Shown one piece after another: positions 16,766 through 63,555 of a stretch of 64,000 nucleotides of DNA. The stretch comes from a virus. Its lineage: Duplodnaviria; Heunggongvirae; Uroviricota; Caudoviricetes. The notes under the pieces are model-generated. The model did no database searches. It had not been told where the DNA came from and saw only the letters and a program-made list of their open reading frames with translations. The stretch's first letter is position 1; the number at the start of each line of letters is the position of its first letter. The stretch lies in the IMG/VR virus record IMGVR_UViG_3300035661_000046, positions 1-64,000 of that record; one strand, written 5' to 3'. Position numbers and translations under genes: made by a program.

Positions 16766-16810
16766 GTGGGTAAACCTACTTATTTAAACACACCTCAATA
16801 CTCTTCATCG
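16766..16810 (-). promoter_or_regulatory. ~45-bp conserved upstream element (copy 2)
   Basis: accaatggactactgtaccatcagtgggtaaacctactt, homologous to 14031..14085. Confidence 0.4.
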
Positions 16811-17347
16811 TATAACCCCTCCATACTTAAAGTGTAACAGTATACTGCTTGGTGCTTGCTTATCACTGTTTACTTCCGTAAAAGGTATTCCATTATTCAG
16901 TAGCATCTCTTTTATTTCTGCATCCTTTTCAACAGCCTCTTGCTCAGTCTGCTTTCTACCTACAGGATCGTATACTTTATCTCTAATCAAGAAGTAGTTA
17001 TAATTATCGTAGGTGTCCCACAGCTCAAACATCAAACTCTTAAAAGTGTTAGGTAGATAGTCTGCAGTAACATAATTAATACCTAGTATTAACGGGGAGT
17101 CAGTTATAATGGTGTCTCTCTTACCTTGTAACCGAGCCATGCGTCTATTTTGATTACCAAGAATGTGCAACTGATCTGTTAGCAGATAATCGTTACCCTC
17201 CCACGTCAGATCCTTAGCATACTCGGTTACTTCTTCTACTTTCTGTCCATCCCATTTCATTAGAAAGAACAACCCGGCTCTCGTGGTGCTTTTACCGCAT
17301 CCAGGGCCCCCAAATAAGTTTATTACTTTAGTTTTGTTTTCATTCAT
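16805..17347 (-). CDS. P-loop NTPase/kinase (possible polynucleotide kinase-like)
   Basis: Walker A GGPGCGKST near the N-terminus of a 180-aa protein. Its start overlaps the stop of the upstream ligase gene, suggesting translational coupling. Confidence 0.45.
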   Translation of the reverse strand: MNENKTKVINLFGGPGCGKSTTRAGLFFLMKWDGQKVEEVTEYAKDLTWEGNDYLLTDQLHILGNQNRRMARLQGKRDTIITDSPLILGINYVTADYLPNTFKSLMFELWDTYDNYNYFLIRDKVYDPVGRKQTEQEAVEKDAEIKEMLLNNGIPFTEVNSDKQAPSSILLHFKYGGVIR

Positions 17348-20879: not shown

Positions 20880-20964
20880 TGGTGCCCGAGGCCAGATTTG
20901 AACTGGCACGCTGTAAAGCAATGGTTTCTAAGACCATCGTGTCTACCAATTTCACCACTCAGGC
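20880..20964 (-). tRNA. tRNA-Leu (anticodon TAG), long variable arm
   Basis: Manual cloverleaf: acceptor GCCTGAG/CTCGGGC (one G-U), D-arm GTGAAATTGGTAGACAC, anticodon stem ATGGT/ACCAT with loop CTTAGAA, long variable arm, T-arm GCCAG TTCAAAT CTGGC, CCA encoded. 85 nt. Confidence 0.8.
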
Positions 20965-21057
20965 GTTACTGGTAATAAGGATTGGTGCTATTTCTAGAGT
21001 AGATCCACTGAGGGATCCTCCTAATTTATAACATCAATCCATATTACTATTAAAATG

Positions 21058-21128
21058 AGCGGGTGGGGAGAATCGAACTCCCATTTTAAGTTTGGAAAAC
21101 TTAAGCTCTACCATTAAACTACACCCGC
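21058..21128 (-). tRNA. tRNA-Gly (anticodon TCC)
   Basis: Acceptor GCGGGTG/CACCCGC, D-arm TAGTTTAATGGTAGAGC, anticodon loop TTTCCAA, T-arm GGGAG TTCGATT CTCCC. CCA not encoded. Confidence 0.75.
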
Positions 21129-21450
21129 GTCGATAATGCAAGGTAGCAAGTATCAACTTGCAAACTGCAACATATCAACAATAAGTTTTATCCCTCACCT
21201 GTTAAGCTCATTTATCCATCACAACAATATTCGACGAATCGATAGCGGGATAATGAGAAGGGTCAGAGATTCCATTAAGCTCGTTGAGGCTTGGCCTCAA
21301 CTATATGTGTGCTACCTTGCAGCCAGTGCCTCTTCCGTTATAGGAAACAGTAAAAAACCTATGGCCGAGGCTGTCGTAAGAGAGGGTACATGAACGATCA
21401 AGAACTTACCTCTCTCACGGTAGGACTGGCAACCTACTAAAACTATTATA

Positions 21451-22071
21451 CTACTCTAGAGCAGCTATTTCAATAGCTGTAGCACTTAACGCAACACAAA
21501 CTTTGTTACGATTAAGATCTGAGATGTCATCAGAGAGCTTAACTAAGGTGCGTTTTGCATCAACCTCAGCTTTCTTTACTAGTTCTATGAAAGACTCATC
21601 TAGAATGGCAATAGGATAACCAGCGCTACGTCCACTCATTAACGCATAAGAAGCTCTAGATGCATCAGCTACATTTACATCTAATCCTTCAAAAGTGCTA
21701 TAGGACATCTTACCTTCAGTGGAACCGGTAATCAGTTTATAAGCTGCCAAAGTTCTCTGAGCAGCATCTATTCTAGTCAGTTTACTTGTTATGCCATGCT
21801 CTAGATTGGCTGCAGCCACTTGGTCTTTTATGCGGACCAGGTCTGCCTGTAAATTAGTGATATTCGTAACAGCCTGAGCTGCTTCTAACGCATACTTAGT
21901 AACTAAAGCTTGAGAGTAGGAAGCCTTAGTAGTTACGTTGAAGTTAGTATCCTCTACTCGTTTTTTGAGTAGTGCAGTATTCTCAGAGATACTTGCGTTA
22001 ATACGCTCTACTACTTTGTGCCATCTATTTAAGGTTAAACTAATGCTTTTGCTTGGTGTCGTTGAATTCAT
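21451..22071 (-). CDS. hypothetical protein
   Basis: 206-aa ORF, Ala/Thr-rich and probably helical. Confidence 0.5.
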   Translation of the reverse strand: MNSTTPSKSISLTLNRWHKVVERINASISENTALLKKRVEDTNFNVTTKASYSQALVTKYALEAAQAVTNITNLQADLVRIKDQVAAANLEHGITSKLTRIDAAQRTLAAYKLITGSTEGKMSYSTFEGLDVNVADASRASYALMSGRSAGYPIAILDESFIELVKKAEVDAKRTLVKLSDDISDLNRNKVCVALSATAIEIAALE

Positions 22072-22109
22072 ATTTTATTCCTAAAATTTAAGTCAGAGTT
22101 GAATTGAGT

Positions 22110-22184
22110 TGGTGGGTCTGAGGAGTTTCGAAATCCTAACCCATGAATTATGAGTTCATTGCTCTTCCCTTGAGCTACAGACCC
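22110..22184 (-). tRNA. tRNA-Met (anticodon CAT; could equally be an Ile-lysidine tRNA)
   Basis: Acceptor GGGTCTG/CAGACCC, D-arm TAGCTCAAGGGAAGAGCA, anticodon stem ATGAA/TTCAT with loop CTCATAA, CCA encoded. The T-stem has one mismatch. Confidence 0.7.
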
Positions 22185-22193
22185 CTTGAAACT

Positions 22194-22270
22194 TGGTGCG
22201 CCCGACAAGAGTCTAACTTGTAACCCCCGATGTAGAAGATCGGTGCTCTATACAATTGAGCTACGGACGC
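22194..22270 (-). tRNA. tRNA-Arg (anticodon TCT)
   Basis: Acceptor GCGTCCG/CGGGCGC (one G-U), D-arm TAGCTCAATTGTATAGAGCA, anticodon stem CCGAT/ATCGG with loop CTTCTAC, T-stem ACAAG/CTTGT, CCA encoded. Confidence 0.75.
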
Positions 22271-22277
22271 ATATTTT

Positions 22278-22472
22278 TTATACTACAGAAAGAATCGGTC
22301 TAATATCTTCAACGTTCATTCCAGCTAACTCAGCTATTGCCTTAGCCTTATCAATGTTAGATACTCTGCTATTCCTAATCCAAGAATGTACTGCTCCATT
22401 GGAAACTCCTAGAAGGTTAGAGGTTTTTGTTACGCCGCCAATTTTTTCTACTGCTACTTTTATGTGGTTCAT
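22278..22472 (-). CDS. small Cro/YdaS-like HTH DNA-binding protein
   Basis: 64 aa; GVTKTSNLLGVSNGAVHSWIRN is a typical Cro/YdaS HTH. Confidence 0.5.
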   Translation of the reverse strand: MNHIKVAVEKIGGVTKTSNLLGVSNGAVHSWIRNSRVSNIDKAKAIAELAGMNVEDIRPILSVV

Positions 22473-22554
22473 TTGATAAATCTCCCTAGATGGTAGGGAT
22501 TATACTACTGCGTAAATAAAGATACAAGATATTTCTTTAGTAGCTTAAAAGTAG

Positions 22555-22590
22555 GCTAAAAATAAGGACGCACCAAGCATCCTTATTTGT
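22555..22590 (-). terminator. rho-independent terminator (minus strand)
   Basis: Hairpin aaggacgc accaa gcatcctt (one G-U) followed by a T-run in the minus sense, downstream of 22608..23048. Confidence 0.5.
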
Positions 22591-22607
22591 AACTACCTAA
22601 AAATTAC

Positions 22608-23048
22608 TTAAGCAGATACTGGTGCTGCTGGGGCTACTTCTGCAACTACTTCTGGTGCAACAAAGTCAGCAGGTACTTTTTGCAAGTCAGCTTTAGTATC
22701 ACGAGGAACTCCCATGCCTAAAGACTTAGCCAAAGGCAGAAAGTTTTGTGAAGCCAGACCATATTGAGTAGCACGTTTTACACCAGCCATCATATCTTTT
22801 AGACCAGCGATTTGTGATTCCAAGGTAGCAATGGTTGCAGCATTGCTTGTCAAGAATGCATCTTTGGTTGCCAACAGGTTAACGATCTCACCAGCCGCTT
22901 CATCAACAACTTTAGTACGGCGCTCAGTCATTTGACGATTCAAAGAAGTCTGGATGTCCAGAGGTAAGCCGCCGAAGTCAGCAACTTGCTGTTCGATATC
23001 TTTGTCAGCTAAACGAACTAAAGTAGCCATATCTATTGGAGCGTTCAT
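22608..23048 (-). CDS. hypothetical protein (coiled-coil, phasin/scaffold-like)
   Basis: 146-aa Ala/Gln/Leu-rich ORF. Promoter motif at 23144-23154. Confidence 0.45.
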   Translation of the reverse strand: MNAPIDMATLVRLADKDIEQQVADFGGLPLDIQTSLNRQMTERRTKVVDEAAGEIVNLLATKDAFLTSNAATIATLESQIAGLKDMMAGVKRATQYGLASQNFLPLAKSLGMGVPRDTKADLQKVPADFVAPEVVAEVAPAAPVSA

Positions 23049-23169
23049 GTGTATTTCCTTTTATTGAGTTAAAAAACTAAAAAATGAATTGACAGTTTTA
23101 CCTACTCTGACAAAGGTTAGCGAGAATGTATCTTCTCTAAATTTCTTATACCAAGTAAATTGACATTAT

Positions 23170-23373
23170 TTAATTATTAACGCAGAGTTCTCTCATTCTA
23201 GGTAATATCCTATTAAGCTTGGCTGTTTGTTCAACCCTACAAGAACTTATGTATACTGGATGAAAAGGTACTCCCGCATCAGACATATCTTCTGTATCCA
23301 GTACTGCAAATAAAGCTTTTACTAATCTTCTAAGTTCTTCAGGGTCATATTCTTCCAAATCTATATCATTCAT
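23170..23373 (-). CDS. hypothetical protein
   Basis: 67-aa acidic ORF. Confidence 0.35.
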   Translation of the reverse strand: MNDIDLEEYDPEELRRLVKALFAVLDTEDMSDAGVPFHPVYISSCRVEQTAKLNRILPRMRELCVNN

Positions 23374-24397
23374 AGGTAATCCTGTCTAAATAATCAAAGT
23401 ACCATTTACGAGCTTTATTACTAACTGCACTGCCTACGTCTTTAGGCTCTAACCCCGACTCAACTATAGTATCGGTTTCCTCTTTAAGAATATCATTGTA
23501 AACCCAACGAACAAAGTCTCCTGTGCTTTTAACGTCAATGGCACGGTTGGTTTCCTTCAAGAAGGCTATGCTTTGTAGAAGTCTATTCTCTGTTACACAT
23601 TTCTCTAAGAAAGCTTCTATGGAAGCTACCTTCTCTAAGTCTACTGCTGCTAGAGTCTTAACTTTAGATGAGGAGTGTTTTTCTCCTTTGACCTTAAACC
23701 ATAGTTCACTAGTCTCTAGCCCAGGAGTAACACAAGACCATACTATTCCTTCTCCTGTTCCTTCTATGCCAAATGCCTTGCCTACCGGACAGCACTCTTC
23801 TACTTTAGTAGTCAGTTCAATTAAGGTATTCTGAGACAAAGCAGGGTTTTCAAAGTCAATAGAAATTGAGAATGTAGGGAAGTCGTGTATTAAATACGTT
23901 GATCTCTCTGGATATGATTTCAAGTCAGGAAAGTCTGAAGGATTATACCAAGTATCTCCTGCCATTATCTTGAAGATTACAAACATCTTTTTAAGTTTAG
24001 AAATGGCTACTCCTGCTTGAATTGATCCTCCACACCATTCTCCAAATAGAGTTAGTGGGCCTCTATACTTTATGGTTGATGAAACAATAGATGCAATCTC
24101 ATAAAAGTGATCTCCGTAAGACCTACCCCAGAAAGCAAATCCAGCATTATCATTTTCTACAGATAGTATTCTTTCTCTACTTTGAAAAGTAAGTCCTCCT
24201 AAAGGTCCTATTACTACTGCGGCATTAGTACCATGAAGTTTTACTGTCCCCTCAAAGTCTAGAACAGGCAATTTCTTAGTACGGTCGTATTTAAGCTCTC
24301 CTGCACTATCTACCCCGATAAATCTTGTCCTGCGATCTACTTTCTGTATTACGGTTCTAAACTGCTCTATTGATGGAAATTTAATATGTTCTTGCAT
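23366..24397 (-). CDS. RNA ligase 2-like (Rnl2 family) nucleotidyltransferase
   Basis: Motif I KLHGTN (T4 Rnl2 has KIHGTN) about 55 aa from the N-terminus. Further motifs FGEWCG and KVKG. 343 aa against 334 aa for T4 Rnl2. Confidence 0.65.
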   Translation of the reverse strand: MQEHIKFPSIEQFRTVIQKVDRRTRFIGVDSAGELKYDRTKKLPVLDFEGTVKLHGTNAAVVIGPLGGLTFQSRERILSVENDNAGFAFWGRSYGDHFYEIASIVSSTIKYRGPLTLFGEWCGGSIQAGVAISKLKKMFVIFKIMAGDTWYNPSDFPDLKSYPERSTYLIHDFPTFSISIDFENPALSQNTLIELTTKVEECCPVGKAFGIEGTGEGIVWSCVTPGLETSELWFKVKGEKHSSSKVKTLAAVDLEKVASIEAFLEKCVTENRLLQSIAFLKETNRAIDVKSTGDFVRWVYNDILKEETDTIVESGLEPKDVGSAVSNKARKWYFDYLDRITYE

Positions 24398-24399
24398 AA

Positions 24400-25572
24400 T
24401 TAATCCTCTGTGATCATAGGTAAAAAATCTTCTCCGGGAAGCCCAAGAAAAGACATGCCTTGTTTTATAACAAACTCTTTATAGTTGTTTTCTCTTCCTA
24501 TGTATAAGTTCATCATCAACCCCATTACCTCATGGTGCTCGGTGTTAGCCTTAATAGCGTATTCTTTACGGCCTAGACCTTTATTCTCTTCATAGAAATC
24601 TTCTACGGTTTTTACTAAGTGATTGAACTTTGGAATAACCATATCTTCCATTTTAGAAAGCTCGGCTAGCACCCAAGCATCATCTGAGAAAGCAGAACGT
24701 ATATCATCTGATAACTCATTTACTACTAACGCAAATAATTTACTAGGGGTTTGAATAGAGTCTTTGGATTGGTGTAACTGAATGTAGGCTAGATTTTTGA
24801 CTTTAACTAAGTAGGAGGTAGAGTCTTCTCTCACCATCTCTATTACGTAACCCTCTCCTTTTTTCTCTTTGCGTATTTCAGAGACTAGTGTAGATTGGTC
24901 TACTTGATATAACCAAGTAGAGTCATATAAGTCCTGGTAATGTACAATCTGATCTATTAGTGTAGAGTACCTAGACATCATCAAATAATTACGAAGTTCA
25001 CTACCAAATAGTGTGCCTCCGGTAGTATGGTTTCTCACAGATAATATAGTTAACTTGTCCTCAGAATATGGAACCACTATGCGATTGGTAGGGGAAGTAT
25101 ATTCTAAGTTTACAGTAATACCCTCCTCCGCAGCTAGAAGTAATTCCGATTTAAATCGTCTGTTCTCTTCCAGGTCTAACCAAGTCATTGCCGCTATAGC
25201 TTGGCTAGAGAATAAGTCTGCTTTGGATTTAAGTCGTAGTTGACCTTTATATAAATAAGTAGAGATCAAGGAGCCATCAAGCTTGTCCATCATTGTACCT
25301 ACTATACACAGAGTGTGGTCTACACCACCTTCTTCATAATTAAAAAATTTCTGGGGAGGCAGGCTGACAAGAACGGGGTTATTAATATCAGTAACATTAA
25401 ACATTGTGCCTCGGCAATCTAAGGCTCCAGGCTTTTGGAACTGTGTCCAAGAGGCTAATCGGTAGTTGAAGATGTTATATAGCTGGTCTTCTAGTACCAC
25501 CTCTTTGCGGTAGAAACTTTCATCTTCATTTACTAAAGCTATTAACGTTTTATACATGTAAGCCTCTCTCAT
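24400..25572 (-). CDS. RNA ligase 1-like (T4 RnlA/gp63 family)
   Basis: Motif I DKLDGSL (T4 Rnl1 has KEDGSL) at about residue 96. 390 aa against 374 aa for T4 Rnl1. Directly adjacent to the Rnl2-like gene. Confidence 0.6.
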   Translation of the reverse strand: MREAYMYKTLIALVNEDESFYRKEVVLEDQLYNIFNYRLASWTQFQKPGALDCRGTMFNVTDINNPVLVSLPPQKFFNYEEGGVDHTLCIVGTMMDKLDGSLISTYLYKGQLRLKSKADLFSSQAIAAMTWLDLEENRRFKSELLLAAEEGITVNLEYTSPTNRIVVPYSEDKLTILSVRNHTTGGTLFGSELRNYLMMSRYSTLIDQIVHYQDLYDSTWLYQVDQSTLVSEIRKEKKGEGYVIEMVREDSTSYLVKVKNLAYIQLHQSKDSIQTPSKLFALVVNELSDDIRSAFSDDAWVLAELSKMEDMVIPKFNHLVKTVEDFYEENKGLGRKEYAIKANTEHHEVMGLMMNLYIGRENNYKEFVIKQGMSFLGLPGEDFLPMITED

Positions 25573-26000
25573 CTATGGTGCTTTGCTGTATACAACAAAG
25601 TTATTTCACTAGCGGTTACTGTATTTACCATCGTTATGTGTTTAGTAGGAACCCATCCTGTAGGGCCATCATCTATCTTAGTAAGATAATCCCCCATAGG
25701 TAACACGCATACTCCTTCAGGAATTCTATCTTCGTCCAAAGGTAGGTATACTATTTCCATGTTGTTATATCTAGGCATAATATGTAGATAGTGTAAGCCC
25801 ACTGGGTGTATAGTAACACCATCTTCTAAATAGTTAAGTATGTATTCATGTACGCTATTAATAGCAGTGACAAAGTCCTTTCCAAGATTTGAAAGGGTAT
25901 GGTTATATAACGCTGGTATTATAGCCGATATACTTCCAGTAGACGGCTCCTGCGTCATACAAATGTAATAGGAATATCTAGGGTCTTCGTTAAAGTTCAT
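25569..26000 (-). CDS. hypothetical protein
   Basis: 143-aa ORF. Confidence 0.45.
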   Translation of the reverse strand: MNFNEDPRYSYYICMTQEPSTGSISAIIPALYNHTLSNLGKDFVTAINSVHEYILNYLEDGVTIHPVGLHYLHIMPRYNNMEIVYLPLDEDRIPEGVCVLPMGDYLTKIDDGPTGWVPTKHITMVNTVTASEITLLYTAKHHR

Positions 26001-26074
26001 TCTTACTCCTTATTAAATGAAAATCCCAGATGATTAGTCTGGGATTGTGTGGTGGAAAGTATTTGATTCGAAAG

Positions 26075-26308
26075 TTACTCTTTATGTGCATCAGCCAGCT
26101 TAGCTAAACCTTCTCCTACTCCATCGGCAAAATTTCTGTTATGGCACTCAATAAGCATAACTTTTGCTTTTCTAATAGTAGCTGCTCGGTGTCTATTCTG
26201 TTCAGCACAGAACTCGGTTACAACGTTTCTAGTCGGGGTAGATAACTCATCATACACGGCTATCTTCTGATCTAGAATATGCAATATAAAACTTAGTTCT
26301 TCATCCAT
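26075..26308 (-). CDS. hypothetical protein
   Basis: 77-aa ORF. Confidence 0.4.
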   Translation of the reverse strand: MDEELSFILHILDQKIAVYDELSTPTRNVVTEFCAEQNRHRAATIRKAKVMLIECHNRNFADGVGEGLAKLADAHKE

Positions 26309-26523
26309 TACGACGTCACCACAAGTTTAAAATCTGGATTTAACCAATATGGGACTTGTTCATATAGTGGTTTTTGCGTGGGAGTTATCGGTCCAATGGT
26401 CGGATTAGACATAGTTAGGTTATGTACCTCTATTCGTAGGGCAGTAACCTCTGCTCTTAGCTTAGATAACTCCTGTTTCATATCATTGACTTCTTCAGTA
26501 TCAAATACTTTTTCGTGTGGCAT
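26308..26523 (-). CDS. hypothetical protein
   Basis: 71 aa; coiled N-terminal half. Confidence 0.4.
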   Translation of the reverse strand: MPHEKVFDTEEVNDMKQELSKLRAEVTALRIEVHNLTMSNPTIGPITPTQKPLYEQVPYWLNPDFKLVVTS

Positions 26524-26541
26524 GTAATACTCTTTCTATAT

Positions 26542-26619
26542 TGGCACTCCCGTAGTGAATCGAACACCACTCAGTCTGGTTTGGAGCCAAACTCGCCTCG
26601 CCTTGGAACATGCGGGAGC
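26542..26619 (-). tRNA. probable tRNA-Trp (anticodon CCA) with an atypical, extended D-arm
   Basis: Acceptor GCTCCCG/CGGGAGT (G-U at 1:72), anticodon stem TTTGG/CCAGA (one G-U) with loop CTCCAAA, T-arm TGGTG TTCGATT CACTA, CCA encoded. The D-arm region (TGTTCCAAGGCGAGGCGA) does not fold canonically. Confidence 0.45.
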
Positions 26620-26679
26620 ATTGTTTAAGTCTTCTTACTAATGCTACTATGGAGCTGGCTCCATTTAAACTCCTAATTC

Positions 26680-26754
26680 TGGCAGTGGATACAGGGATTG
26701 AACCTGTGCATGACGGGATCAAAACCCGTTGCCTTTCCTCTTGGCTAATCCACA
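26680..26754 (-). tRNA. tRNA-Gln (anticodon TTG)
   Basis: Acceptor TGTGGAT/ATCCACT (1:72 mismatch), anticodon stem ACGGG/CCCGT with loop TTTTGAT, T-arm ACAGG TTCAATC CCTGT, CCA encoded. Confidence 0.7.
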
Positions 26755-26759
26755 CCTGT

Positions 26760-27056
26760 TCAAACTAATTTAGCAAAACGTCTAACTAAAAACATTAACC
26801 ATTTAGGGGCGTAAATTATAGCTGTAACCTGTGCCGGTAATACCTTCACGCCATTCATTCTAACGTGAAAAAACTCACTATAAGCATCCTGTGTTAATGA
26901 GAATACCGCCTCTGTTTCCGACCGGTTTAATTCATAAAATGCACAGTTAGTTATATACTGCCCCTTCTCCTCGGGGGTAGTCGTTGGTTTATAAACTAGG
27001 TCTATGATGTGTTTAGCACTAAGCCTATCAGTAAACGGTATTTTTTTCTCTATCAT
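26760..27056 (-). CDS. hypothetical protein
   Basis: 98-aa ORF. Confidence 0.45.
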   Translation of the reverse strand: MIEKKIPFTDRLSAKHIIDLVYKPTTTPEEKGQYITNCAFYELNRSETEAVFSLTQDAYSEFFHVRMNGVKVLPAQVTAIIYAPKWLMFLVRRFAKLV

Positions 27057-27244
27057 AAGGTTCTCATTACTAGACTATAGGAAAAGTAATAGCATAAGAC
27101 ATTCAAACACTCCCTTGATTATTACTAATTAATTATAGTGGAAGTATAGATAACGATCATAGTGGACGAATGTAGCTGCTTTACCAGCAGCTACACCTCA
27201 TTAACGGTCTACACTTCCTTCTAAACTATAAGGATTGTTACATT

Positions 27245-27469
27245 TTACTCGAATGCGCTATTATCAGCAAGGCTATCTTCTAAGTCATGTATATCCCCTA
27301 GTATTCTAATAGGCTCTGCTCTACCTACTACATATACCTCTATTACTGGTCTGAATCTACCACCTTCTTTTATAGGAGTCCCACACACAAGGTGTGTAAT
27401 TTGTTTAGCCATAATTGCTACAGAGGTAGGTATCGCCGTATCTGCTAGTACATATCCAATAATTTTCAT
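27245..27469 (-). CDS. hypothetical protein
   Basis: 74-aa ORF. Confidence 0.4.
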   Translation of the reverse strand: MKIIGYVLADTAIPTSVAIMAKQITHLVCGTPIKEGGRFRPVIEVYVVGRAEPIRILGDIHDLEDSLADNSAFE

Positions 27470-27492
27470 AGTCTATTCCTTTATTCAAACAT

Positions 27493-27524
27493 TAAAAAAC
27501 CCAGAGAAGTTTCCTAGTCTGGGT
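27493..27524 (-). terminator. rho-independent terminator (minus strand)
   Basis: Hairpin cccaga ctaggaaacttc tctggg followed by T6 in the minus sense. It sits downstream of the tRNA-like gene and upstream of 27245..27469. Confidence 0.65.
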
Positions 27525-27695
27525 ATCATTAGTTGCAAGTTAAAGTTGAACCTCTTTACTCCGAGTAATACCCTCCAATGTCCAGTGGATAATCTTGTGA
27601 GGGCCAAAACTGATTATTTAAGAGTGAGAGGTTCATGCTTTTTATTTTAATACACTTTTTTACGTTTTTCAACCATTTGTGAAAATAGTTTCAAG

Positions 27696-27768
27696 TGCCC
27701 TCAGAACGAATTGAACGCTCGACCTCTTGATTATAAATACAAGTGCTCTACCGCTGAGCTATGAGGGT
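27696..27768 (-). tRNA. aberrant tRNA-like gene (18-nt anticodon arm giving an 8-10-nt loop; A1:C72 mismatch; no encoded CCA)
   Basis: Canonical D-arm TAGCTCAGCGGTAGAGCA, variable loop AGGTC, T-arm GAGCG TTCAATT CGTTC and a 6-bp acceptor. The anticodon arm CTTG-TATTTATAAT-CAAG is one nt too long. A perfect extended -10 (TGGTATAAT) lies about 15 nt upstream. Confidence 0.5.
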
Positions 27769-27782
27769 TGCTCTACTTAGTT

Positions 27783-27792
27783 ATTATACCAG
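27783..27792 (-). promoter_or_regulatory. extended -10 promoter (minus-sense TGGTATAAT) driving the tRNA-like gene
   Basis: + strand tattatacca, whose reverse complement tggtataata matches the TGnTATAAT consensus exactly. It lies between the NAMPT stop and the tRNA-like 5' end. Confidence 0.55.
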
Positions 27793-27795
27793 TTA

Positions 27796-29199
27796 CTAGA
27801 AGATAATGGAACTATTTTTCCTAACCGCATCAAAAGAGACACTCTTAACGAAACCTGGACGGTATACCTGAGTAAGCATATCCCTACCTCGGTTCTTCCC
27901 GGGTGTGATTCTATCACTATAGAAGCCAATACGATCATCCAAGAAAGTAGAAACTATTCCTCGTTTAGATGCCTTACCAGGATCAGTTTTAGGATCCTTG
28001 TACACATCTACTTCTACCCCATTCACGGTTACACTAGAGCATTTCATAGCCCACTTGAAGGTATCACGGTCTAAACGCTGCAGCAAGGCTCCGCCCATAC
28101 CAAAGGCTATATTATCAATAGAGAACATCTCTTTCAGCATCGCAGTTAAGATTTCTTCGATAGAGTCCATATTAACACCATCTCCTTGAATAATACGCAC
28201 GTTATTAAGTACCTTATAACCCTTAGAGTTTATGGTGTACCCGAATGACTTCTGTAAAGAGCGCAAGCAATACATAACCATGCTCTTTGGATTTCCTGAG
28301 TCGGGACGAAGTACTACTGTAGCACCAGAGTCAATAACCTCTTGTTTTAAATCACGACCCCAGATGACGTCTACTGCGTTATACATGTCGTAGGCATCTA
28401 CTACTACAGCAAAGTAAGCCCCAGGAACACCAAACTGCTTAATCATGTTAGAATAAGCTGCCTGCTCATAAGGCCGACCCCAGCTTGTTATAGTCGAGTG
28501 CTCTGCTGCAGGAATACTACCGGAAACAAAACCTTTAGCGTCATAGTTTCTGCGAAGCCAAGGTGTTGCTGCAATAGTATCAGAACCCATGAAGTTAACT
28601 AAGTGTGCTGCACCACCAACCTGGGATGTTTCATAGGATGAACAACCGCGACTTCCGAAGTCATGTAACTTGAAATTAATCTGACTGTCAGGATCATCAC
28701 TAGAAATAACAAGCCCGCGATAAATCATATCTTTAATCGTCTTACTTACTGTAGAGACAGTGCTGCCATACCAGATAGCTCGTAGTATCTGAGTTTCATA
28801 ATGGCCTGGTGCCCAGAATACTTTAGGGTCGATAGAATCTATACGAGCTACTGGCAAGTTAATAGGTACGTTAATACCTTCTTCTATAGCATGTATAGAA
28901 ATAGGTGCAAAACCACCATGCTCTTTAACAATGTATTCCCAAGCATCCTTCTTGAAAGGTACACCTTGCATTGCAAATTCTTCTGCAGCTTCCTCTACGT
29001 TGTCGAGCGTCGCTGGAGTAGAGAGATACTCCTTGATGTAACCTTGAAGACCAAACATTTGAGTCTTGTAAACACCTTGGATGGTTGAGCCTCGAGCTTC
29101 TACATAGGAACTCATGCTCGTTGTCCCTTTAGGGAACTGGTCTGGGTGACTTGGTTTATAGCTATCCGTATCCAAGATTGGATTGTAAGTTTGTTTCAT
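27796..29199 (-). CDS. nadV: nicotinamide phosphoribosyltransferase (NAMPT/NadV)
   Basis: N-terminus MKQTYNPILDTDSYKPSH is the hallmark of NadV/NAMPT (NPIL.TDSYK.SH). 467 aa is typical for the family. Confidence 0.85.
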   Translation of the reverse strand: MKQTYNPILDTDSYKPSHPDQFPKGTTSMSSYVEARGSTIQGVYKTQMFGLQGYIKEYLSTPATLDNVEEAAEEFAMQGVPFKKDAWEYIVKEHGGFAPISIHAIEEGINVPINLPVARIDSIDPKVFWAPGHYETQILRAIWYGSTVSTVSKTIKDMIYRGLVISSDDPDSQINFKLHDFGSRGCSSYETSQVGGAAHLVNFMGSDTIAATPWLRRNYDAKGFVSGSIPAAEHSTITSWGRPYEQAAYSNMIKQFGVPGAYFAVVVDAYDMYNAVDVIWGRDLKQEVIDSGATVVLRPDSGNPKSMVMYCLRSLQKSFGYTINSKGYKVLNNVRIIQGDGVNMDSIEEILTAMLKEMFSIDNIAFGMGGALLQRLDRDTFKWAMKCSSVTVNGVEVDVYKDPKTDPGKASKRGIVSTFLDDRIGFYSDRITPGKNRGRDMLTQVYRPGFVKSVSFDAVRKNSSIIF

Positions 29200-29211
29200 A
29201 TTATAGAACCC

Positions 29212-30267
29212 CTATAAAAAGTAATTGATGATATGAAGGTGATCTTCATAAAATTTGTGACTTAATTCTGGCAAAGCTGAGAATGGAACCCAGAATGCCT
29301 TCTTTGCATCGTCGCTACCTTTAACCTTGGGTAGCCCAGGAGTTAGGTCAGAGCCATCTAACCTAAATAAGAACGCATGAGTAATAGTTCTACCTCTAGA
29401 AGATCGGCCTGGAGAATCGAATACTTTAGAATCTCCTTTATTGGCATGATCTAGAACAGGTAGAGGGACTTTTAAACGAGTCTCCTCTCTTAACTCACGT
29501 AAAGCACAAGAGTATAACGTTTCGTTAGGATCAATGAAGCCCCCAGGTAAGGCATACAGTCCTTTGCCGGGAAATCCTCCTCGCTCTATTAAAAGAACAT
29601 GGCCATTCTTTATTACTACTGCGTCTGTTGTTACAAAGATTGGAGTATGTGGAGAACCTGCCCAAGCTTCTTTATATTCTCTAATAAAGGAGTCTTCTTC
29701 AAGCAGTAGATAGTACTCTTCTGAAAAAGCAAACTCTCTTAGAAAAGCTTCTGTACCCGTAGGTACTCTACTATAAACCGCAGCCTCACGCATTTTAGAA
29801 AGAGTATTTTCGTTAAAATACATACTCCGTAAAAGGCTGGCATTTATATCACCTGCTAGGCTACCAACTTCAACGTGAGGCCCCCATTGAGGGAATTCTA
29901 GTAAATATCCTGTATCTTCTTTTAGATGGCCTATTAGTTTTGGATTCTTAGCCTCAAGCAGTGAAACTACGTCGTTAACCTCCTCTTGGACTGATTCCAA
30001 CCATCGGTTGTTGGCATACAGGTAATCCTTTACTGCAACAAAGAATACTCTACTAGCAGAGTCCGGATCTAGAGAGCTAGTTATCATATTGATTCGCTCT
30101 TCATCACTAAAGGGATTTTTTAGACTCCTAGAGGACCTAGAGGACCCTAATACTATTATCACCTTGTCTGCTATATTCAGGGCCTCAAGCATAGTCGCCA
30201 TATGACCATTATGAAAGATCTGAAATCTTCCGATCATTATTAAAACTTCGTGTTTCTTATTTGACAT
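29212..30267 (-). CDS. natV: bifunctional NMN adenylyltransferase / Nudix hydrolase (NadM-Nudix, NatV-like)
   Basis: The N-terminal nucleotidyltransferase carries H-x-G-H (GRFQIFHNGH). The C-terminal Nudix box is GGFIDPNETLYSCALRELREETRL. Directly downstream of nadV, as in vibriophage KVP40. Confidence 0.8.
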   Translation of the reverse strand: MSNKKHEVLIMIGRFQIFHNGHMATMLEALNIADKVIIVLGSSRSSRSLKNPFSDEERINMITSSLDPDSASRVFFVAVKDYLYANNRWLESVQEEVNDVVSLLEAKNPKLIGHLKEDTGYLLEFPQWGPHVEVGSLAGDINASLLRSMYFNENTLSKMREAAVYSRVPTGTEAFLREFAFSEEYYLLLEEDSFIREYKEAWAGSPHTPIFVTTDAVVIKNGHVLLIERGGFPGKGLYALPGGFIDPNETLYSCALRELREETRLKVPLPVLDHANKGDSKVFDSPGRSSRGRTITHAFLFRLDGSDLTPGLPKVKGSDDAKKAFWVPFSALPELSHKFYEDHLHIINYFL

Positions 30268-30296
30268 TTGGAAAACCCTTCTATATGTCTGGTTTA

Positions 30297-30590
30297 TTAA
30301 TTGCGGTATCCTTCTACTACTATCCCCGAGATCAACTTTAGATCATCTTCGTGTTCTATAATGTTACAGTCATCGTCAATCTGACAATCAGTATCTGCGA
30401 ACGAATCCTCAGCCAATATACTTCTTATCAAATCAGCCTTTGTGGGATAGTCTTGGTATAATTCCGCTTCGGACTCGAAGTGCCCGTGGGTAATGGTCAT
30501 ATAGTTATCTGAGGCCATTACAGTGTAATACTCGTTATTATCAGATAATTCTGTTATTTTTACCAAACTAATAAACAATATATTTGACAT
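30297..30590 (-). CDS. hypothetical acidic protein
   Basis: 97-aa ORF. Confidence 0.4.
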   Translation of the reverse strand: MSNILFISLVKITELSDNNEYYTVMASDNYMTITHGHFESEAELYQDYPTKADLIRSILAEDSFADTDCQIDDDCNIIEHEDDLKLISGIVVEGYRN

Positions 30591-30604
30591 GGCTATGCCC
30601 CTTC

Positions 30605-30949
30605 TTAATTTACGTTAAAACGACGAGTGGTTACTAAAGCTGGATGCTTAACTTTCATAAAAAGTATATGACCTAGCACAGTCAGCGCTTCTGTTTTACT
30701 AATCATATGCTCTAGTTCTAAACTTACGTTTTCCGGCAGCACTAGTATATCTATCTCTGGATTGTAACCCTTACGTAGAAGTAAGGATTCTAACTCAGAA
30801 TAAATAGAGTAATCAGAGTAATCAGTCTCTACTACTAGAGACGGCGGAGTAGAGGAAGTAGTAGTATTAACTATCCAAGTGTTACCTTTAGTCTTTACCT
30901 GTTTAAGGAAGTTGGGTCGCTTCTTTACTTTAAGTATTGGTCTAGCCAT
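30605..30949 (-). CDS. hypothetical protein
   Basis: 114-aa ORF. Confidence 0.4.
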   Translation of the reverse strand: MARPILKVKKRPNFLKQVKTKGNTWIVNTTTSSTPPSLVVETDYSDYSIYSELESLLLRKGYNPEIDILVLPENVSLELEHMISKTEALTVLGHILFMKVKHPALVTTRRFNVN

Positions 30950-31230
30950 TATTCTATGTACTCCCCTCTGTAAGATGGCAAGTTAGCGTTTAATCCTAAA
31001 ACCTTAAGTGCCTTCAAGGTGCCTCCATATATTTCTGTAACCCCAGGCGTATTCTTTGGTTTATAAGAGTACTTTCTAAACAACCCTTTCTTAACAAGAG
31101 ACTCTATCTCCGGGGTTACACTATGGTTAGGTCCAGTTGCGAAATAGTTGCGGTATACCCCACCACCTTCTATAGATCCCGTGAAACATTGTATCAATAC
31201 ATCTTTCTCTTCTTTAGTTATTTCTATCAT
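30949..31230 (-). CDS. hypothetical protein
   Basis: 93-aa ORF. Confidence 0.4.
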   Translation of the reverse strand: MIEITKEEKDVLIQCFTGSIEGGGVYRNYFATGPNHSVTPEIESLVKKGLFRKYSYKPKNTPGVTEIYGGTLKALKVLGLNANLPSYRGEYIE

Positions 31231-31724: not shown

Positions 31725-31990
31725 TATTCATACCCCGTTATTTCACGAAGTTCATAACCAGGATCACCCTCCTCGAAAGTAGGAGCAGTAGCCTTAGCTG
31801 TGTTAGTTACGTATAACCAACGTGCAGTACGTGTACTTTGTAAAGCACAACCCTCTACGGTTGCAGGAATAAAATTACAATTACCGCACCCACACTTTCT
31901 AGTTCTGAGAAACTTCTTATTATTAGCCAAATCCTCAAAATACTCTAGAGGGTACAAGCTATCTGTAAAGTCTTCTACTTCTTGTTCCAT
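31724..31990 (-). CDS. small Cys-rich (zinc-binding) protein
   Basis: CGCGNC...C motif; 88 aa. Overlaps the start of the RuvC-like gene. Confidence 0.4.
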   Translation of the reverse strand: MEQEVEDFTDSLYPLEYFEDLANNKKFLRTRKCGCGNCNFIPATVEGCALQSTRTARWLYVTNTAKATAPTFEEGDPGYELREITGYE

Positions 31991-32563
31991 TATCTATTTC
32001 CTATTTTATTTATCATTGTTAATAAATCTTCTTGCGAAGAACCCCGATGTACTACTACCAAGTCTCCCCAGTTTGGCCCTATCTCTGCTTCAACTCCAAT
32101 TGGTAGGTCTAGCCAGTCAAAGGTTTCAACAGGGTAGTCTTCCATGTAATAGAAGGCTGTCTCTAGGACTTCAGCTGCGTGTTGTAGAGGACATTCTATT
32201 TCAATTGAGTCATAGACGGTACAGATGCACTTTGCACCAAACTTCTTTATAGCGTTATTTAAAGCTGTAAACACCACCAACCCTAATGTCGACGATGTAG
32301 ACTGTACCCTAACATTCTGAGAATTTCTTAATGCAGCATTATACACTGCAGTCTTCTTATACATTGGCAAAGTACCAAACTCCATCTTACGCTGTGCAAA
32401 AGGAGTATACACAAACTGGTTGTGCTTTGCCATTGCATGTGCATCTTCTACATATTTCTTAATAAGAGGGTATGTATCGAAGTACATGTTAATTAAAGTC
32501 TGAGCTTCTTCTTTAGAGATTCCCAGGTTCATTGCGACTCCTGCTACAGAGGAGCCGTATAAG
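31990..32563 (-). CDS. family A DNA polymerase, polymerase subunit, exon 2 (C-terminal part incl. motif C)
   Basis: GSSVAGVAMNLGISKEEAQTLINMYFDTYP corresponds to Pol I [37 protein letters not shown] is the motif C (HDE) region. The frame is open upstream of the tracked Met back to the predicted 3' splice site at 32563. Confidence 0.7.
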
Positions 32564-32827
32564 CACTTAGTCTACTACTTTCGTAATAGAGTGGACTATA
32601 CCATTACCCTTTTCTAAAACACGCTTTTACGAGGGTATTCGCCGTATTATACCTAGTTAAAGGTATCGCAGCAAGATCTGTTCTAGATCTTCTGTCAGTC
32701 TCTGAACCATTTATACCAATCCCTTGGTATTCTGGCTGCTGATTGCCATACCTAGTATCTAGGGTTAGGGTTCCAGCAATTGAGCGAATTTTTAATACAG
32801 CATTACTACCGTATGGCACCTAAGTTA
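32564..32827 (-). mobile_element. group I intron (ORF-less, 264 nt) in the DNA polymerase gene
   Basis: It interrupts Pol A between motif B and the following helix. Predicted P1: exon ggcaU paired with intron GUGCC (U-G at the splice site). The intron starts taacttag and ends ...ctaagtG. It shares four conserved blocks with the rtcB intron, including a P7-like AUAGUCC element. Confidence 0.65.
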
Positions 32828-33783
32828 ATGCCGAATGTTAACGCTTTTGCTGCTTGTCTATAACCCTTATACTCCTTATATAAGGGATGTCCGGGATTAT
32901 CGACGATAGAGATAAACTCATCGTAGTCTAACCTTCGCATTGCACTAGCCGAGAAGGAGTGGAAATCCTTACCTTCTTCAATAGCCTTAAGTAAAGTAGG
33001 ATCCTTACATAGCGCTCCTAGAATCTTTACTTCGGCACTAGAGAAGTCTAAAGCAATAAACACATTGCCATCTGCTACCTTAAAGCATCTACGTACATTA
33101 TACCCATGCTTAGGTCTAGGTAACTGAGTTAAGTTAGGGTTATCACCAGTTATACGGAAACTACTAGTTCCGTGTAGGTTATAAGAAGGATGTACTCTAC
33201 CATCAGGCTTAACGTGGTCTTCTACGTAAGTCTTAATAAAAGTACGGTGAGCACTAGCAATGTCATTGCGTTTTGCTATATCTGCCAAGTAAGGGATTCT
33301 AGCAGATTTAACCAAGGCGGCTAATGCATCACCATCAGTAGAAGGAGATCCTGTCTTAGTTAAGAAAGGTGGAGTCAATCCTAACTCTCCGTATAAGAAA
33401 TCGCCTAGTGCAGCTCCAGAGTCTAAGTCTACCGGATGACCAATCGCAGTAAAAATAGAATGTTCCAAAGAAGCAATCTCTGCTTCCATTTGACGATTCA
33501 TTTGTCTATTAAGCTCGATGTCATACTCAATGCCATTGAGTTCTAAGTCACAGATAAACTCAAAAGCTGGCATTTCGTATTTGCGTATTGCTTCTAGTAT
33601 AGAAGGAATCTTACCCTTTGTTAATTTCCCATGAGTAGAAGTTACATACAGGGGTTGCTCAATAATTCTGGGAAAAGTAGCAGCCAGTATTTCTGAGGTT
33701 GTAATGCAGTCTATACCCGCGTACAGTAGCAAGTCTTCAACTGGATAATCTTCATATGTGTTATATATCGGTTTTTGTTCCAT
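32828..33783 (-). CDS. family A DNA polymerase, polymerase subunit, exon 1 (palm/fingers incl. motifs A and B)
   Basis: Motif A ALDFSSAEVKIL (DYSQIELR-like) and motif B RQAAKALTFGI(LYG). The tracked ORF reads into the intron and stops after ...FGINLGAIR. Confidence 0.7.
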
Positions 33784-34123
33784 TGGCTTTTTTATGCTCC
33801 TGTACTATTTCCTGAAACCTATCTAAAATTAAAGCGTCTCTAGTAGCCAAGTTGCTTAGCTCATTTTCCAACTCAGAAAGCATCTCTTCGGTATCTTCAG
33901 CTAAACCCATTAAAGTAGGCTCCATAAATCTAAGAGTATCTAGCTGAGCTTTAATACCACTAGCCTGAGCTAGGATATGTGCACTCTCCACTATGATGTT
34001 CTCTGCTTCTCTACTACCCAAGCTTTTTACTAAAGCAAGGATTACTTCATGAGGATCAATATCATCTTCTCCTGCTGTTACCTCTACTGCGTCCTCTACT
34101 TCTACTGGTTTAAACTTACTCAT
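33761..34123 (-). CDS. hypothetical acidic protein lying between the exonuclease and polymerase genes
   Basis: 120 aa; ATGA-type overlap with the exo gene stop, and a 23-nt overlap with the pol start. Confidence 0.45.
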   Translation of the reverse strand: MSKFKPVEVEDAVEVTAGEDDIDPHEVILALVKSLGSREAENIIVESAHILAQASGIKAQLDTLRFMEPTLMGLAEDTEEMLSELENELSNLATRDALILDRFQEIVQEHKKANGTKTDI

Positions 34124-35366
34124 CTATCTCATCCTCACTTTCATTATTATTAACTAACTTAGTTAATTTTGGTAGTTTATCTTCATAACCCCCAAGACCT
34201 GTATGTGGTATCCAATCCCATACAGCTCGTTTAAGACCATAGTTCTTATTAAGTCCAGAGTTTATGTTATGAAGAATTAGCATCGTGTCGAACACGATTC
34301 CTTGTATTCTAACACCGGTACAGCACATAGTGTATAAAACATCAAACTTTATGTTATGCCCGACTTTCTTAATGTCAGGGTTTAGTAGAATCTTTGCAAT
34401 ATATTCCCAGGCTATGTGTGGATGGAACCACGTATTTTCTCTATGCCACAGAGGTATTACTAAAGCTTCAATATACCCCTCTGCCGTTCTATACCCAAAC
34501 TGAGCAGTTATTATCTTTGCTGAGTTAGAGAAAGGATCTAGGCCGGTAGTTTCTAAGTCGAAGCTTATTACAGAAGTACTAGGCAGGTTTGAAAGAATAT
34601 TAGTGAAGGTAACTACCTCACTTATAGATCTGGCTATTTTGATATGTTTAGAATACCTCTCTAACGCATCTGCCAGTTTAGGAACCACCAGAGCTCCTCT
34701 AGCTAGCCTACTAGCCTTCTCGAAGTCCCGATCTATCACTTCTAAGAAATCCGTCCCCCACATCTGTCCTGATGAGTTCTGACGTATCATAGTAGTTACT
34801 TTAGGATGCAAAGTGATTACCACGTTAGAGACAAAGTCATTACTGTGTATTTCTCCTCGGTTAGCCGTGTTACTCACTGTACTAAACCCAAGTTCCTTAG
34901 TCACCGCCGTGGTTAGACTTATTATTACTTTTGGGTTAGCCCTACGTATCTCTTCTAGTAAGTACGGGGCACATCTTCTAAGCACTGTCTGAGCGGGGGC
35001 TTTACCCTTGTTTATATCTAAGCCTTTTATCTCGCACTTAGTCAAGTTAGTAGTACGGTAAGAAAGCTTTGAAAAATGCTTAATAGCTAAGTAGTTAATA
35101 ATGTTACTGTGGATTTGGTTTATTTCATCTCCCGTGTAGAAACCCTCAGTAAAGGCTCGGTGATCCTGTATTATTAAGATGTCTACGGGAGTGTGATTGA
35201 GAAGTACTAGGTCAGGAGTTTTACATTTCAGTGTACACACTTTGTTACAGTAGCTAGTAGAGATCTGAGAGAAATCCTCTTTCTGAATTATTGCTGATTT
35301 TACCGCAGGAGTTATCTTAGGTCTGTTGTATAAATCTGATAAAGGTAAATCTATTAATTTTGCCAT
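34116..35366 (-). CDS. 3'-5' proofreading exonuclease protein (DnaQ-like domain of a split family A polymerase)
   Basis: Exo I VISFDLETTGLDP, Exo II GHNIKFDVLY and a YxxxD-like region near the C-terminus. It is encoded as a separate ORF from the polymerase domain. Confidence 0.65.
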   Translation of the reverse strand: MAKLIDLPLSDLYNRPKITPAVKSAIIQKEDFSQISTSYCNKVCTLKCKTPDLVLLNHTPVDILIIQDHRAFTEGFYTGDEINQIHSNIINYLAIKHFSKLSYRTTNLTKCEIKGLDINKGKAPAQTVLRRCAPYLLEEIRRANPKVIISLTTAVTKELGFSTVSNTANRGEIHSNDFVSNVVITLHPKVTTMIRQNSSGQMWGTDFLEVIDRDFEKASRLARGALVVPKLADALERYSKHIKIARSISEVVTFTNILSNLPSTSVISFDLETTGLDPFSNSAKIITAQFGYRTAEGYIEALVIPLWHRENTWFHPHIAWEYIAKILLNPDIKKVGHNIKFDVLYTMCCTGVRIQGIVFDTMLILHNINSGLNKNYGLKRAVWDWIPHTGLGGYEDKLPKLTKLVNNNESEDEIDE

Positions 35367-43073: not shown

Positions 43074-43928
43074 TTGTTGAACTTTAATAAAAGTGTGCTA
43101 TATTCTAGTAATCACATTATAGAGGACAAAATGGATTTATCAAAATATTATGAACAAATATGCAAACACCCAATACTAACTAGAGAAGAAGAGTTTATTC
43201 TGTGTAGCAAGTACGTATCTCCAGACACCCCTGAAGAAGACAAAGCAGGTATACGAGACACTATTATAAATGCAAATCTAAGATTCGCTTTTAAGACAGC
43301 TAAGAACTATTCCAGAAACGATCCTTCCATGTTTGAATATTTAATCTCGGCAGGAAATGAAGGTCTATTAGTAGGGCTAGAGAAGTATAACCCTACTAGA
43401 GATGTACGCTTCCTAAGCTATGCAGGGTGGTGGGTAGTTCAGCGCATTCTAAATGAAATGTCTCAGATGAGAATAGTGTCCCTACCTATATGGAAGCAAC
43501 AGCTATCCTCTAGAATTCTTAAATTTAAAGACGCAAATGAAACAGCTACCTTTGAAGATATAAAAGCTGCATTCCCAGACATATCTGAAAAGTACATTAG
43601 AGAGTTGCATGAGACCAGGTACCTGACCTACTACATTGAAGATATGGATGAGCATAACTTCCTTATTAATCCAATAGAAGCTCAAGTAGAGAAAGCTATG
43701 GATAATGAGCTACTAGGTAAAGCTATGCAAGAGATGTCTCAGATTCACAGAGATATACTTATTTTTTCATTTGGTTTTCACGAAGAGAATGGAAAAGAAA
43801 TGTCTCCTATTTCAATAGCTAAAAAATTAGGTATAACTAGGGATCAGTTTAAAGAATATAAAAAAGAAGCTATGGATATTCTGAGAGATAAGCTAAATGT
43901 AGAAATAGAAGTAGAAGACCCAGATTAA
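43074..43928 (+). CDS. sigma-70-family RNA polymerase sigma factor
   Basis: Region 2-like YLISAGNEGLLVGLEKYNPTRDVRFLSYAGWWVVQRI and region 4-like HTH SIAKKLGITRDQFKEYKKEAM. 284 aa. It is the only convincing + strand gene within the minus block. Confidence 0.75.
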   Translation: MLNFNKSVLYSSNHIIEDKMDLSKYYEQICKHPILTREEEFILCSKYVSPDTPEEDKAGIRDTIINANLRFAFKTAKNYSRNDPSMFEYLISAGNEGLLVGLEKYNPTRDVRFLSYAGWWVVQRILNEMSQMRIVSLPIWKQQLSSRILKFKDANETATFEDIKAAFPDISEKYIRELHETRYLTYYIEDMDEHNFLINPIEAQVEKAMDNELLGKAMQEMSQIHRDILIFSFGFHEENGKEMSPISIAKKLGITRDQFKEYKKEAMDILRDKLNVEIEVEDPD

Positions 43929-63012: not shown

Positions 63013-63316
63013 CGTTATTCCATTATTTCTAATGGCGTGGACTATACCATCTCTAAGGTCACTGAGTTTTATAGTCTCTACCTTAGGCTCGCCGTGTTAA
63101 TACTACACCTACCATACTTATATGAAGTATACCGTATTCCTAAATGAAAGGTAAGCAGGTAGGGTGTAGTATTCTGCACAAGTGTCTATAAAACACAGTG
63201 CAAGTCTCTGAACCATTTGACAATATCACTACTGCCTCTGGCTGCTGATTGCCCTCGACTATACGTTAGGGTTTCCAGCAATTGAGCGAGTTTTAAAGGG
63301 GCCGATTTTTTAGTTA
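63013..63316 (-). mobile_element. group I intron (ORF-less, ~304 nt) in rtcB, homologous to the DNA polymerase intron
   Basis: It separates ...IIPAAVGV from DLGCGM... (the two are contiguous in RtcB homologs). Predicted P1: exon aggggU paired with intron GCCCCU (U-G at the splice site). The intron starts taactaaaaaatcg and ends in G. It shares the blocks gtggactatacca, gtctctgaaccattt, ctggctgctgattgcc and agggtt.ccagcaattgagcga with the pol intron. Confidence 0.65.
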
Positions 63317-63534: not shown

Positions 63535-63555
63535 TATTGTTCCCTCAATTTAGGT

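Follow-up and report, generated by a model that had tools for sequence, protein, structure and literature searches.

The 64,000-nucleotide (nt) stretch analysed here, in the following referred to as the window, covers positions 1 to 64,000 of the IMG/VR virus record IMGVR_UViG_3300035661_000046 (Caudoviricetes) and carries two adjacent genes, natV and nadV, which very probably form an NAD+ reconstitution operon of the NARP2 type in a large uncultured phage. The interval 27796..30267 is filled exactly by the two open reading frames (ORFs), both of which are located on the minus strand. natV (30267..29212) is predicted to encode a fusion of 351 amino acids (aa) between a NadM-type nicotinamide mononucleotide (NMN) adenylyltransferase and a Nudix ADP-ribose pyrophosphatase, and nadV (29199..27796) a nicotinamide phosphoribosyltransferase (Nampt) of 467 aa, the putative activities of both enzymes being assigned from characterised homologs. 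The corresponding pair of Vibrio phage KVP40, named NARP2, makes NAD+ and abolishes type I Thoeris and DSR2 defence (bioRxiv 10.1101/2024.02.11.579819). An earlier, sequence-only reading of the window had proposed a KVP40-type NadV/NatV pair regenerating NAD+, and this proposal was borne out by full-length matches, by identities of 45% (NadV) and 36% (NatV) to the KVP40 proteins and by the conservation of the catalytic residues. The operon is genuine and intact and belongs to a new, divergent phage, the pathway itself being already published. Its description adds a divergent and compact example, taken from a large uncultured phage, to an experimentally tested pathway.

NatV combines an N-terminal HxGH domain and a C-terminal Nudix domain within one chain (Pfam CTP_transf_like, residues 10-67, 6e-12; NUDIX, residues 216-347, 3.9e-18), which can be aligned from end to end with solved NadM-Nudix enzymes, i.e., slr0787 of Synechocystis (PDB 2qjo; 4e-87, residues 5-350 on 6-337) and NadM-Nudix of Francisella (PDB 2qjt; 1.8e-61, residues 6-349 on 7-343). 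The HxGH motif, the ATP-binding signature of the nucleotidyltransferase domain, is present as H19-N-G-H22 (30202..30213, minus strand) and aligns with GRFQPFHLGH of slr0787. The counterpart of the NMNAT motif ISSTxxR is INASLLR at residues 141-147 (29827..29847, minus strand), where slr0787 has FSSTAIR and Francisella NadM has FNATEFR in the alignment. A sequence match to the Nudix box (Gx5Ex7REUxEExGU), GFIDPNETLYSCALRELREETRL, was found at residues 243-265 (29473..29541, minus strand); the catalytic glutamates of REx2EE are present, the box is nearly identical to that of slr0787, and the alignment to the solved enzymes also takes in the downstream segment DxPxRSxRGRxITH. The fusion of an HxGH nucleotidyltransferase with a Nudix box that had been read from the sequence was therefore confirmed, with HNGH at residues 19-22 and a complete box.

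The public JGI gene call for natV comprises only 326 aa, as it begins at Met25 (461..1441 of contig L001, whose DNA there is that of window 30267..29212); it thereby loses the HxGH motif and is annotated with NUDIX alone. The start of the 351-aa form is backed by the ribosome-binding site, by the 2qjo alignment, which sets in at residue 5, and by the gene call on a variant contig (L015, 96% identical), in which natV was called from the full-length start. Given the truncated call, automated pipelines would see in the product nothing but a Nudix protein, and the pathway would go unnoticed. The main value of the present analysis is accordingly one of annotation, and it opens no new question.

For NadV, the Pfam domains NAPRTase (2.7e-56) and NAMPT_N (1.8e-18) were identified, and the match to the NCBIfam equivalog PRK09198 (4.8e-157) reached 523 bits against a cut-off of 405. 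The alignment with Nampt of Xanthomonas campestris (PDB 7yqo) reached 2e-130 and that with human NAMPT, which extends over the whole protein, about 1e-103; a loop between the first two strands of NadV is four residues longer than in the Xanthomonas enzyme. The NadV signature pointed out in the sequence-only reading, NPILDTDSYKPSH, was recovered at residues 6-18 of the 467-aa ORF (nt 29146-29184). Residues were mapped to the human numbering via the 2gvg alignment, and all 16 active-site residues checked, whose roles are those described for NAMPT structures, are kept: D12, Y14, F181, R184, D207, H234, R298, D300, G339, D340, G369, G370, R378, K386, K401 and K409 (human D16, Y18, F193, R196, D219, H247, R311, D313, G353, D354, G383, G384, R392, K400, K415 and K423). 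His234 (28498..28500, minus strand) is aligned to human His247, the autophosphorylated catalytic histidine, and the equivalent of D207, human D219, selects nicotinamide over nicotinate. Both proteins hit the families expected of them at scores far above chance and retain every catalytic residue that was checked. The same NadV protein was also found on JGI metagenome contigs.

The two genes are closely coupled with regard to translation, with 12 nt between the stop of natV and the start of nadV. Ribosome-binding sites were identified in front of both, GAAGGG 10 nt ahead of the natV ATG and AGGGG ahead of the nadV start. The order of transcription runs from three small ORFs (31230..30297) via natV and nadV to a tRNA-Ile with the anticodon UAU (27768..27695). 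As everything is located on the minus strand, natV lies upstream of nadV, and the earlier placement of the Nudix fusion directly downstream had to be reversed. From the DNA polymerase down to nadV the intergenic gaps range from -23 to +29 nt, with the exception of a gap of 273 nt that is due to a group I intron. Since the genes sit in a co-directional string devoted to replication and nucleotide metabolism, their expression probably falls into the early to middle phase of infection, alongside that of DNA polymerase, RuvC and the tRNAs further downstream. With a GC content of 42.6% in nadV and 40.2% in natV, the two genes are near the value of the window (39.3%), and a recent foreign acquisition was therefore rejected.

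Two kinds of transferase have been described for such phage pathways: Namat uses ADP-ribose (ADPR)-pyrophosphate supplied by Adps (NARP1), and Nampt uses phosphoribosyl pyrophosphate (PRPP) and is accompanied by Nmnat (NARP2; bioRxiv 10.1101/2024.02.11.579819). Namat and Nampt are homologous and usually annotated alike, and the 2019 phage records with a NadV or Namat homolog (481 have a NatV homolog) are mostly of the Namat type, which would favour a NARP1-type locus whose transferase is a Namat joining nicotinamide to the ADPR-pyrophosphate made by Adps. The results already contradict this possibility and leave it highly improbable. Xanthomonas Nampt was matched by NadV with 439 bits and human NAMPT with 350 bits, compared to 204 bits for the Namat of SPbetaL1 (9W5X/9W5W; PMC12774641). 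In the latter, the clamp-helix aromatics F392 and Y396 constitute the adenine selectivity clamp (PMC12774641). These aromatics are present in both Adps-linked Namats that were aligned, those of Bacillus phage PJN02 and Staphylococcus phage G1 (GSFTYQY, GSFSYQF), whereas the same columns hold A371 and R375 in NadV (GGALLQR), which in this respect resembles KVP40 NadV. In a neighbour-joining tree, NadV grouped with the Nampts of KVP40 and roseophage DSS3_MAL1 and with three Nampts from metagenomes, the two Namats being placed separately.

The gene neighbourhood points in the same direction. In the NARP1 phages G1 and PJN02, which have a homologous transferase (~30-32% identity) and the same NAD+ product, a PRPS-like Adps with its gene directly upstream accompanies a transferase with the clamp GSFxYQY/F. 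Here, no Adps adjoins the transferase; its upstream neighbour and partner is NatV, an Nmnat. A tblastn search of the 64-kb window with two Adps queries retrieved no Adps (best E 0.39), and the PRPS-like Pfam families of Adps and Prs were absent among about 100 window ORFs. NARP1 and NARP2 are reported never to co-occur, no phage having been described with both (bioRxiv 10.1101/2024.02.11.579819). NARP3, which consists of PnuC and the NadR-like Bas30_86 and ends in NMN adenylylation to NAD+ (PMC13464706), has this end step in common with the natV-nadV pair; however, neither PnuC nor a fused NMNAT-RNK NadR was present among the scanned window ORFs, and the locus is therefore not NARP3. A third possibility, nicotinate specificity, is suggested by the description of NCBIfam PRK09198 and of several phage records, which read 'nicotinate phosphoribosyltransferase'; NadV would then be PncB-like and feed the Preiss-Handler route. 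Against this speak the presence of NAMPT_N and the conservation of the Asp that corresponds to human D219; moreover, every one of the best structural relatives is a nicotinamide phosphoribosyltransferase, and the Pfam scans of the window revealed neither an NAD synthetase nor a deamidase, so that this assignment has next to no chance of being correct. Both a NARP1 type and nicotinate specificity were thus considered and rejected.

KVP40 encodes the same two proteins (NadV, KVP40.0264; NatV, KVP40.0162) with the same domain architecture and pathway logic, the identities given above extending over 424 aa for NadV and 351 aa for NatV, with the HxGH motif in the same place. The arrangement is different: natV (94507-95532) and nadV (138214-139707) are 43 kb apart in KVP40 and 12 nt apart here, natV then nadV. 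The 'KVP40 NARP2 operon' of the experiments therefore does not occur naturally as an operon in the genome of that phage. KVP40 carries in addition nadR and pnuC, a NARP3-like pair situated between natV and nadV (113614-116214); in the window, there is no pnuC or full nadR. Furthermore, KVP40 is a T4-like member of the Straboviridae, whereas the phage studied here is without DNA-level relation to any isolate, and a megablast search with 27600-31300 against isolated phages gave no match.

Closer counterparts were found in the roseophages DSS3_MAL1, DSS3P8 and MD18 and in large phages of Xanthomonas, Ralstonia and Rhizobium, in which natV is followed by nadV, the two being adjacent or nearly so. 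natV was located directly ahead of nadV in all five relatives that were fetched, and the same order occurs in many isolates, among them RTH11, LucasX, DLP_6, Cp1R7A-A1 and B1VFA. Identity to the proteins of isolated phages does not exceed 49%: the closest phage homologs come from this group, with 46% for either protein of DSS3_MAL1 (the best value for NatV) and up to 48.7% for NadV of Ralstonia phage RsoM2USA. In DSS3_MAL1, an RNA ligase and an ATP-dependent DNA ligase likewise lie beside the pair; it differs by a 102-aa ORF between natV and nadV, and the small ORFs upstream are not common to the related loci. A scan of IMG/VR with NatV returned four loci only, at 38-39% identity, and no close relative. 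The primase-helicase encoded in the window is 33-36% identical to those of Vibrio phages D69, D148 and D181 and of Salmonella phage Arash. The phage belongs to a lineage that is distant and unclassified.

The best matches among solved structures, X. campestris Nampt (7yqo) and slr0787 (2qjo), span the full length and all motifs, but are cellular proteins of chromosomal bacterial housekeeping salvage, in contrast to the pair described here, which is borne by a phage. The latter is indicated by replication genes, tRNAs and a pronounced strand bias, 95 of the 113 window ORFs being located on one strand. The gene content comprises a primase-helicase, an intron-split PolA, RuvC, ribonucleotide reductase (RNR), ThyA, RNA ligases, Rha/ANT, NinX and seven tRNAs; no structural genes were found in the 64 kb.

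From the domain structure of the two proteins, the following course of NAD+ reconstitution can be proposed. A host NADase effector of the TIR, SIR2 or SEFIR type would cleave NAD+ to nicotinamide and ADP-ribose. The Nudix domain of NatV would convert ADP-ribose to AMP and ribose-5-phosphate, from which PRPP would be formed by Prs of the host; the window itself yielded no Prs gene of the phage. NadV may then join nicotinamide and PRPP to NMN, driven by ATP via phosphorylation of His234, and the N-terminal HxGH domain of NatV would produce NAD+ from NMN and ATP. Of the phages with this Nampt, 94% also carry Nmnat (bioRxiv 10.1101/2024.02.11.579819). An action of phage NadV and NadM against NADase effectors has been proposed before, every NadM phage having NadV (Iyer et al., 2022). 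A role in counter-defence in this phage is thereby suggested by homology and by the KVP40 experiments.

Several points weigh against a NARP2 operon with such a role. The ISSTxxR motif of NatV is degenerate (INASLLR), though Francisella NadM has the similar FNATEFR. The best model for NatV, NF003786 (PRK05379), was matched with 359.3 bits and thus under the equivalog cut-off of 397; as the match (PRK05379.1-2, 359 bits) spans the whole model, positions 10-351 of 354, the low score reflects divergence and no part is missing. The window is part of a genome, and Adps, Prs or PnuC may be encoded elsewhere. Co-transcription and the timing of expression of the module are read from gene packing. Finally, KVP40 NARP2 increases NAD+ also in cells that have no defence system (bioRxiv 10.1101/2024.02.11.579819), so that the selective benefit could consist in general NAD+ supply.

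This last point leads to the alternative that natV and nadV serve as a general auxiliary metabolic module, which would enlarge the NAD(P) pool for nucleotide and DNA synthesis of the phage independently of defence. Such was the original view of the KVP40 genes, and the NAD+ increase in defence-free infected cells is in agreement with it. The window also holds the reducing-power-dependent large and small subunits of RNR, thymidylate synthase, dCMP deaminase and NT5C, and the module is embedded in the string of replication genes and is not a separate island. On the other hand, the KVP40 pair demonstrably cancels Thoeris and DSR2, the flank with tRNAs and three kinds of RNA ligase likely serves counter-defence as well, and, the DNA ligase of the phage being of the ATP-dependent kind, the window contains no phage enzyme identified as a consumer of NAD+. 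We therefore regard a purely metabolic purpose as the less likely option, albeit one to be taken seriously. The two purposes are not mutually exclusive, and sequence analysis cannot separate general NAD+ supply from counter-defence.

The Nudix domain might also be the primary activity and act on a substrate other than free ADP-ribose, for instance in the removal of NAD caps from RNA or the destruction of ADP-ribose-derived immune signals such as those of Thoeris, with NAD+ synthesis being secondary. Nudix enzymes are promiscuous towards nucleoside-diphosphate-X compounds, and viral Nudix domains acting on NAD+/ADPr derivatives have been discussed, that of NadM being interpreted as regulating NAD+ levels (PMC9503650). 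However, the Nudix domain of NatV aligns from end to end with those of slr0787 and Francisella NadM-Nudix, and nothing at this locus points to another substrate. As the Nudix domains of both reference enzymes are ADP-ribose pyrophosphatases, we consider such a primary function improbable, and a contribution of the domain to NAD+ reconstitution by NARP2 is favoured.

The module is followed downstream by seven tRNAs (Leu-UAG, Gly-UCC, Met, Arg-UCU, Trp, Gln and Ile-UAU; 20880..27768, minus strand). Located among these, within 8 kb of the module, are a T4-type RNA ligase 1 (25572..24400) and an RNA ligase 2 (24397..23366), both on the minus strand. The tRNAs and the two ligases likely constitute a kit for tRNA repair or replacement directed against anticodon nucleases, beside NARP2. 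Together with a third type of RNA ligase and a kinase resembling the ribosylnicotinamide-kinase (RNK) domain of NadR, the arrangement provides a modest lead on bundled countermeasures, which would face metabolite-depleting as well as tRNA-cleaving defences.

The kinase in question, a P-loop protein of 180 aa (Pfam AAA_28; 17347..16805, minus strand), is encoded about 10 kb downstream of the module, overlaps the end of the gene for the ATP-dependent DNA ligase and is a candidate accessory gene. It may be a nicotinamide riboside kinase, i.e., the riboside-kinase half of NadR detached from its NMNAT half, which would turn the locus into a three-enzyme hybrid of NARP2 and NARP3. If so, NatV would receive NMN from a second source that does not depend on PRPP, and the hybrid would sit in a wider counter-defence stretch with seven tRNAs, Rnl1, Rnl2 and RtcB. 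With the kinase domain of KVP40 NadR the protein shares 26% identity, and homologs occur near nadV in Myxococcus phage Mx1 (1.4 kb) and in the locus L003 (3.3 kb). Of the 60 phage records listed for the kinase, 13 were also among the about 118 listed for natV, where about 0.14 would be expected by chance, a co-occurrence that is confounded by the shared ancestry of jumbo phages. Several observations oppose a riboside kinase: the PDB sequence profile finds a deoxynucleoside kinase and not NadR, the Foldseek result was ambiguous, and RefSeq names the AAA_28 homologs thymidylate kinase. In addition, the kinase gene abuts that of the DNA ligase both here and in L008, a closely related locus which has no NARP2 gene within 10 kb, and the phage is otherwise without an identified kinase for deoxynucleoside monophosphates, a function the AAA_28 protein could fulfil. 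We thus consider the hybrid rather unlikely.

Immediately next to the module lie further elements that the sequence-only reading had noticed correctly, yet placed on the wrong side. The supposed tRNA-like gene ahead of it is the tRNA-Ile(UAU) (27695..27768, minus strand; ARAGORN, Rfam tRNA 53.8 bits), which exists, but 27 nt past the nadV stop on the same strand. It has no part in the enzymatic pathway and is probably co-transcribed with the module. Conversely, the three small ORFs (93, 114 and 97 aa; 30297..31230, minus strand) said to follow the module are real and precede it, being located directly upstream of natV, tightly packed and co-directional. None had a Pfam or NCBIfam match, and PHROG matches were marginal at most. 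For the 97-aa ORF next to natV, only two homolog clusters were found among 5.8 billion proteins, and its 71%-identical homolog occurs on contigs in which other, unrelated small ORFs come next instead of natV. Homologs of the three ORFs were also not detected beside natV and nadV in five related loci. The lack of family matches and the occurrence of the 97-aa homolog in a context other than NARP2 led us to reject a functional role of the small ORFs in the module; they may share a transcript with it, but there is nothing to connect them to its function, and they are probably unrelated passengers.

A promoter belonging to the module itself, as assumed in the sequence-only reading, did not receive support. 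Between 26400 and 32600, 16 sigma-70-like matches were counted compared to 15.8 +/- 4.5 in shuffled sequences, and a dedicated promoter was dropped because the number of sites was no higher than in the shuffles. The sole good promoter-like match (27672..27644, 10 of 12 positions) is located downstream of tRNA-Ile, and no terminator was predicted on the coding strand around the module. A 284-aa protein with a sigma-70 region 2 is encoded on the minority strand (43074..43928, plus strand). The phage may thus have its own promoter specificity, in which case scans for host-type promoters may be uninformative. A search for repeats as shared regulatory motifs between 26000 and 33000 yielded short repeats at chance level with one exception, the similar ribosome-binding and start regions of natV and the 97-aa ORF, AGAAGGG-N9/10-ATGTCAAATA.

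Further observations concern genes in the wider surroundings. The group I intron mentioned above (32572..32837, minus strand; Rfam RF00028, 67.9 bits, E 4e-15) splits a family-A DNA polymerase between the ORFs 33783..32806 and 32532..31990. At the intron site, about 670 nt encoding a LAGLIDADG-like ORF are inserted in the variant contig L015; this ORF is absent here. The N-terminal polymerase ORF (34116..35366, minus strand) comprises uracil-DNA-glycosylase-superfamily and 3'-5' exonuclease domains, and between it and the end of the polymerase domain lie two more ORFs and the intron. Another gene that appears to be split is that for the RNA ligase RtcB (62052..63954, minus strand): the ORF 62052..62996 matches positions 52-426 of Pfam RtcB, and a second ORF nearby also matches RtcB (2e-15). 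As a stretch of 95 nt (63203..63297) shares 76% identity with a portion of the polymerase-intron region in L015, the presence of a second, related intron near the split RtcB is suggested. Phage phosphatases have been reported to counter the NAD+-degrading RES defence (2026 preprint), and the window also encodes a calcineurin-like metallophosphoesterase and an SPFH/Band-7 protein (4074..4796 and 13205..14002, both minus strand).

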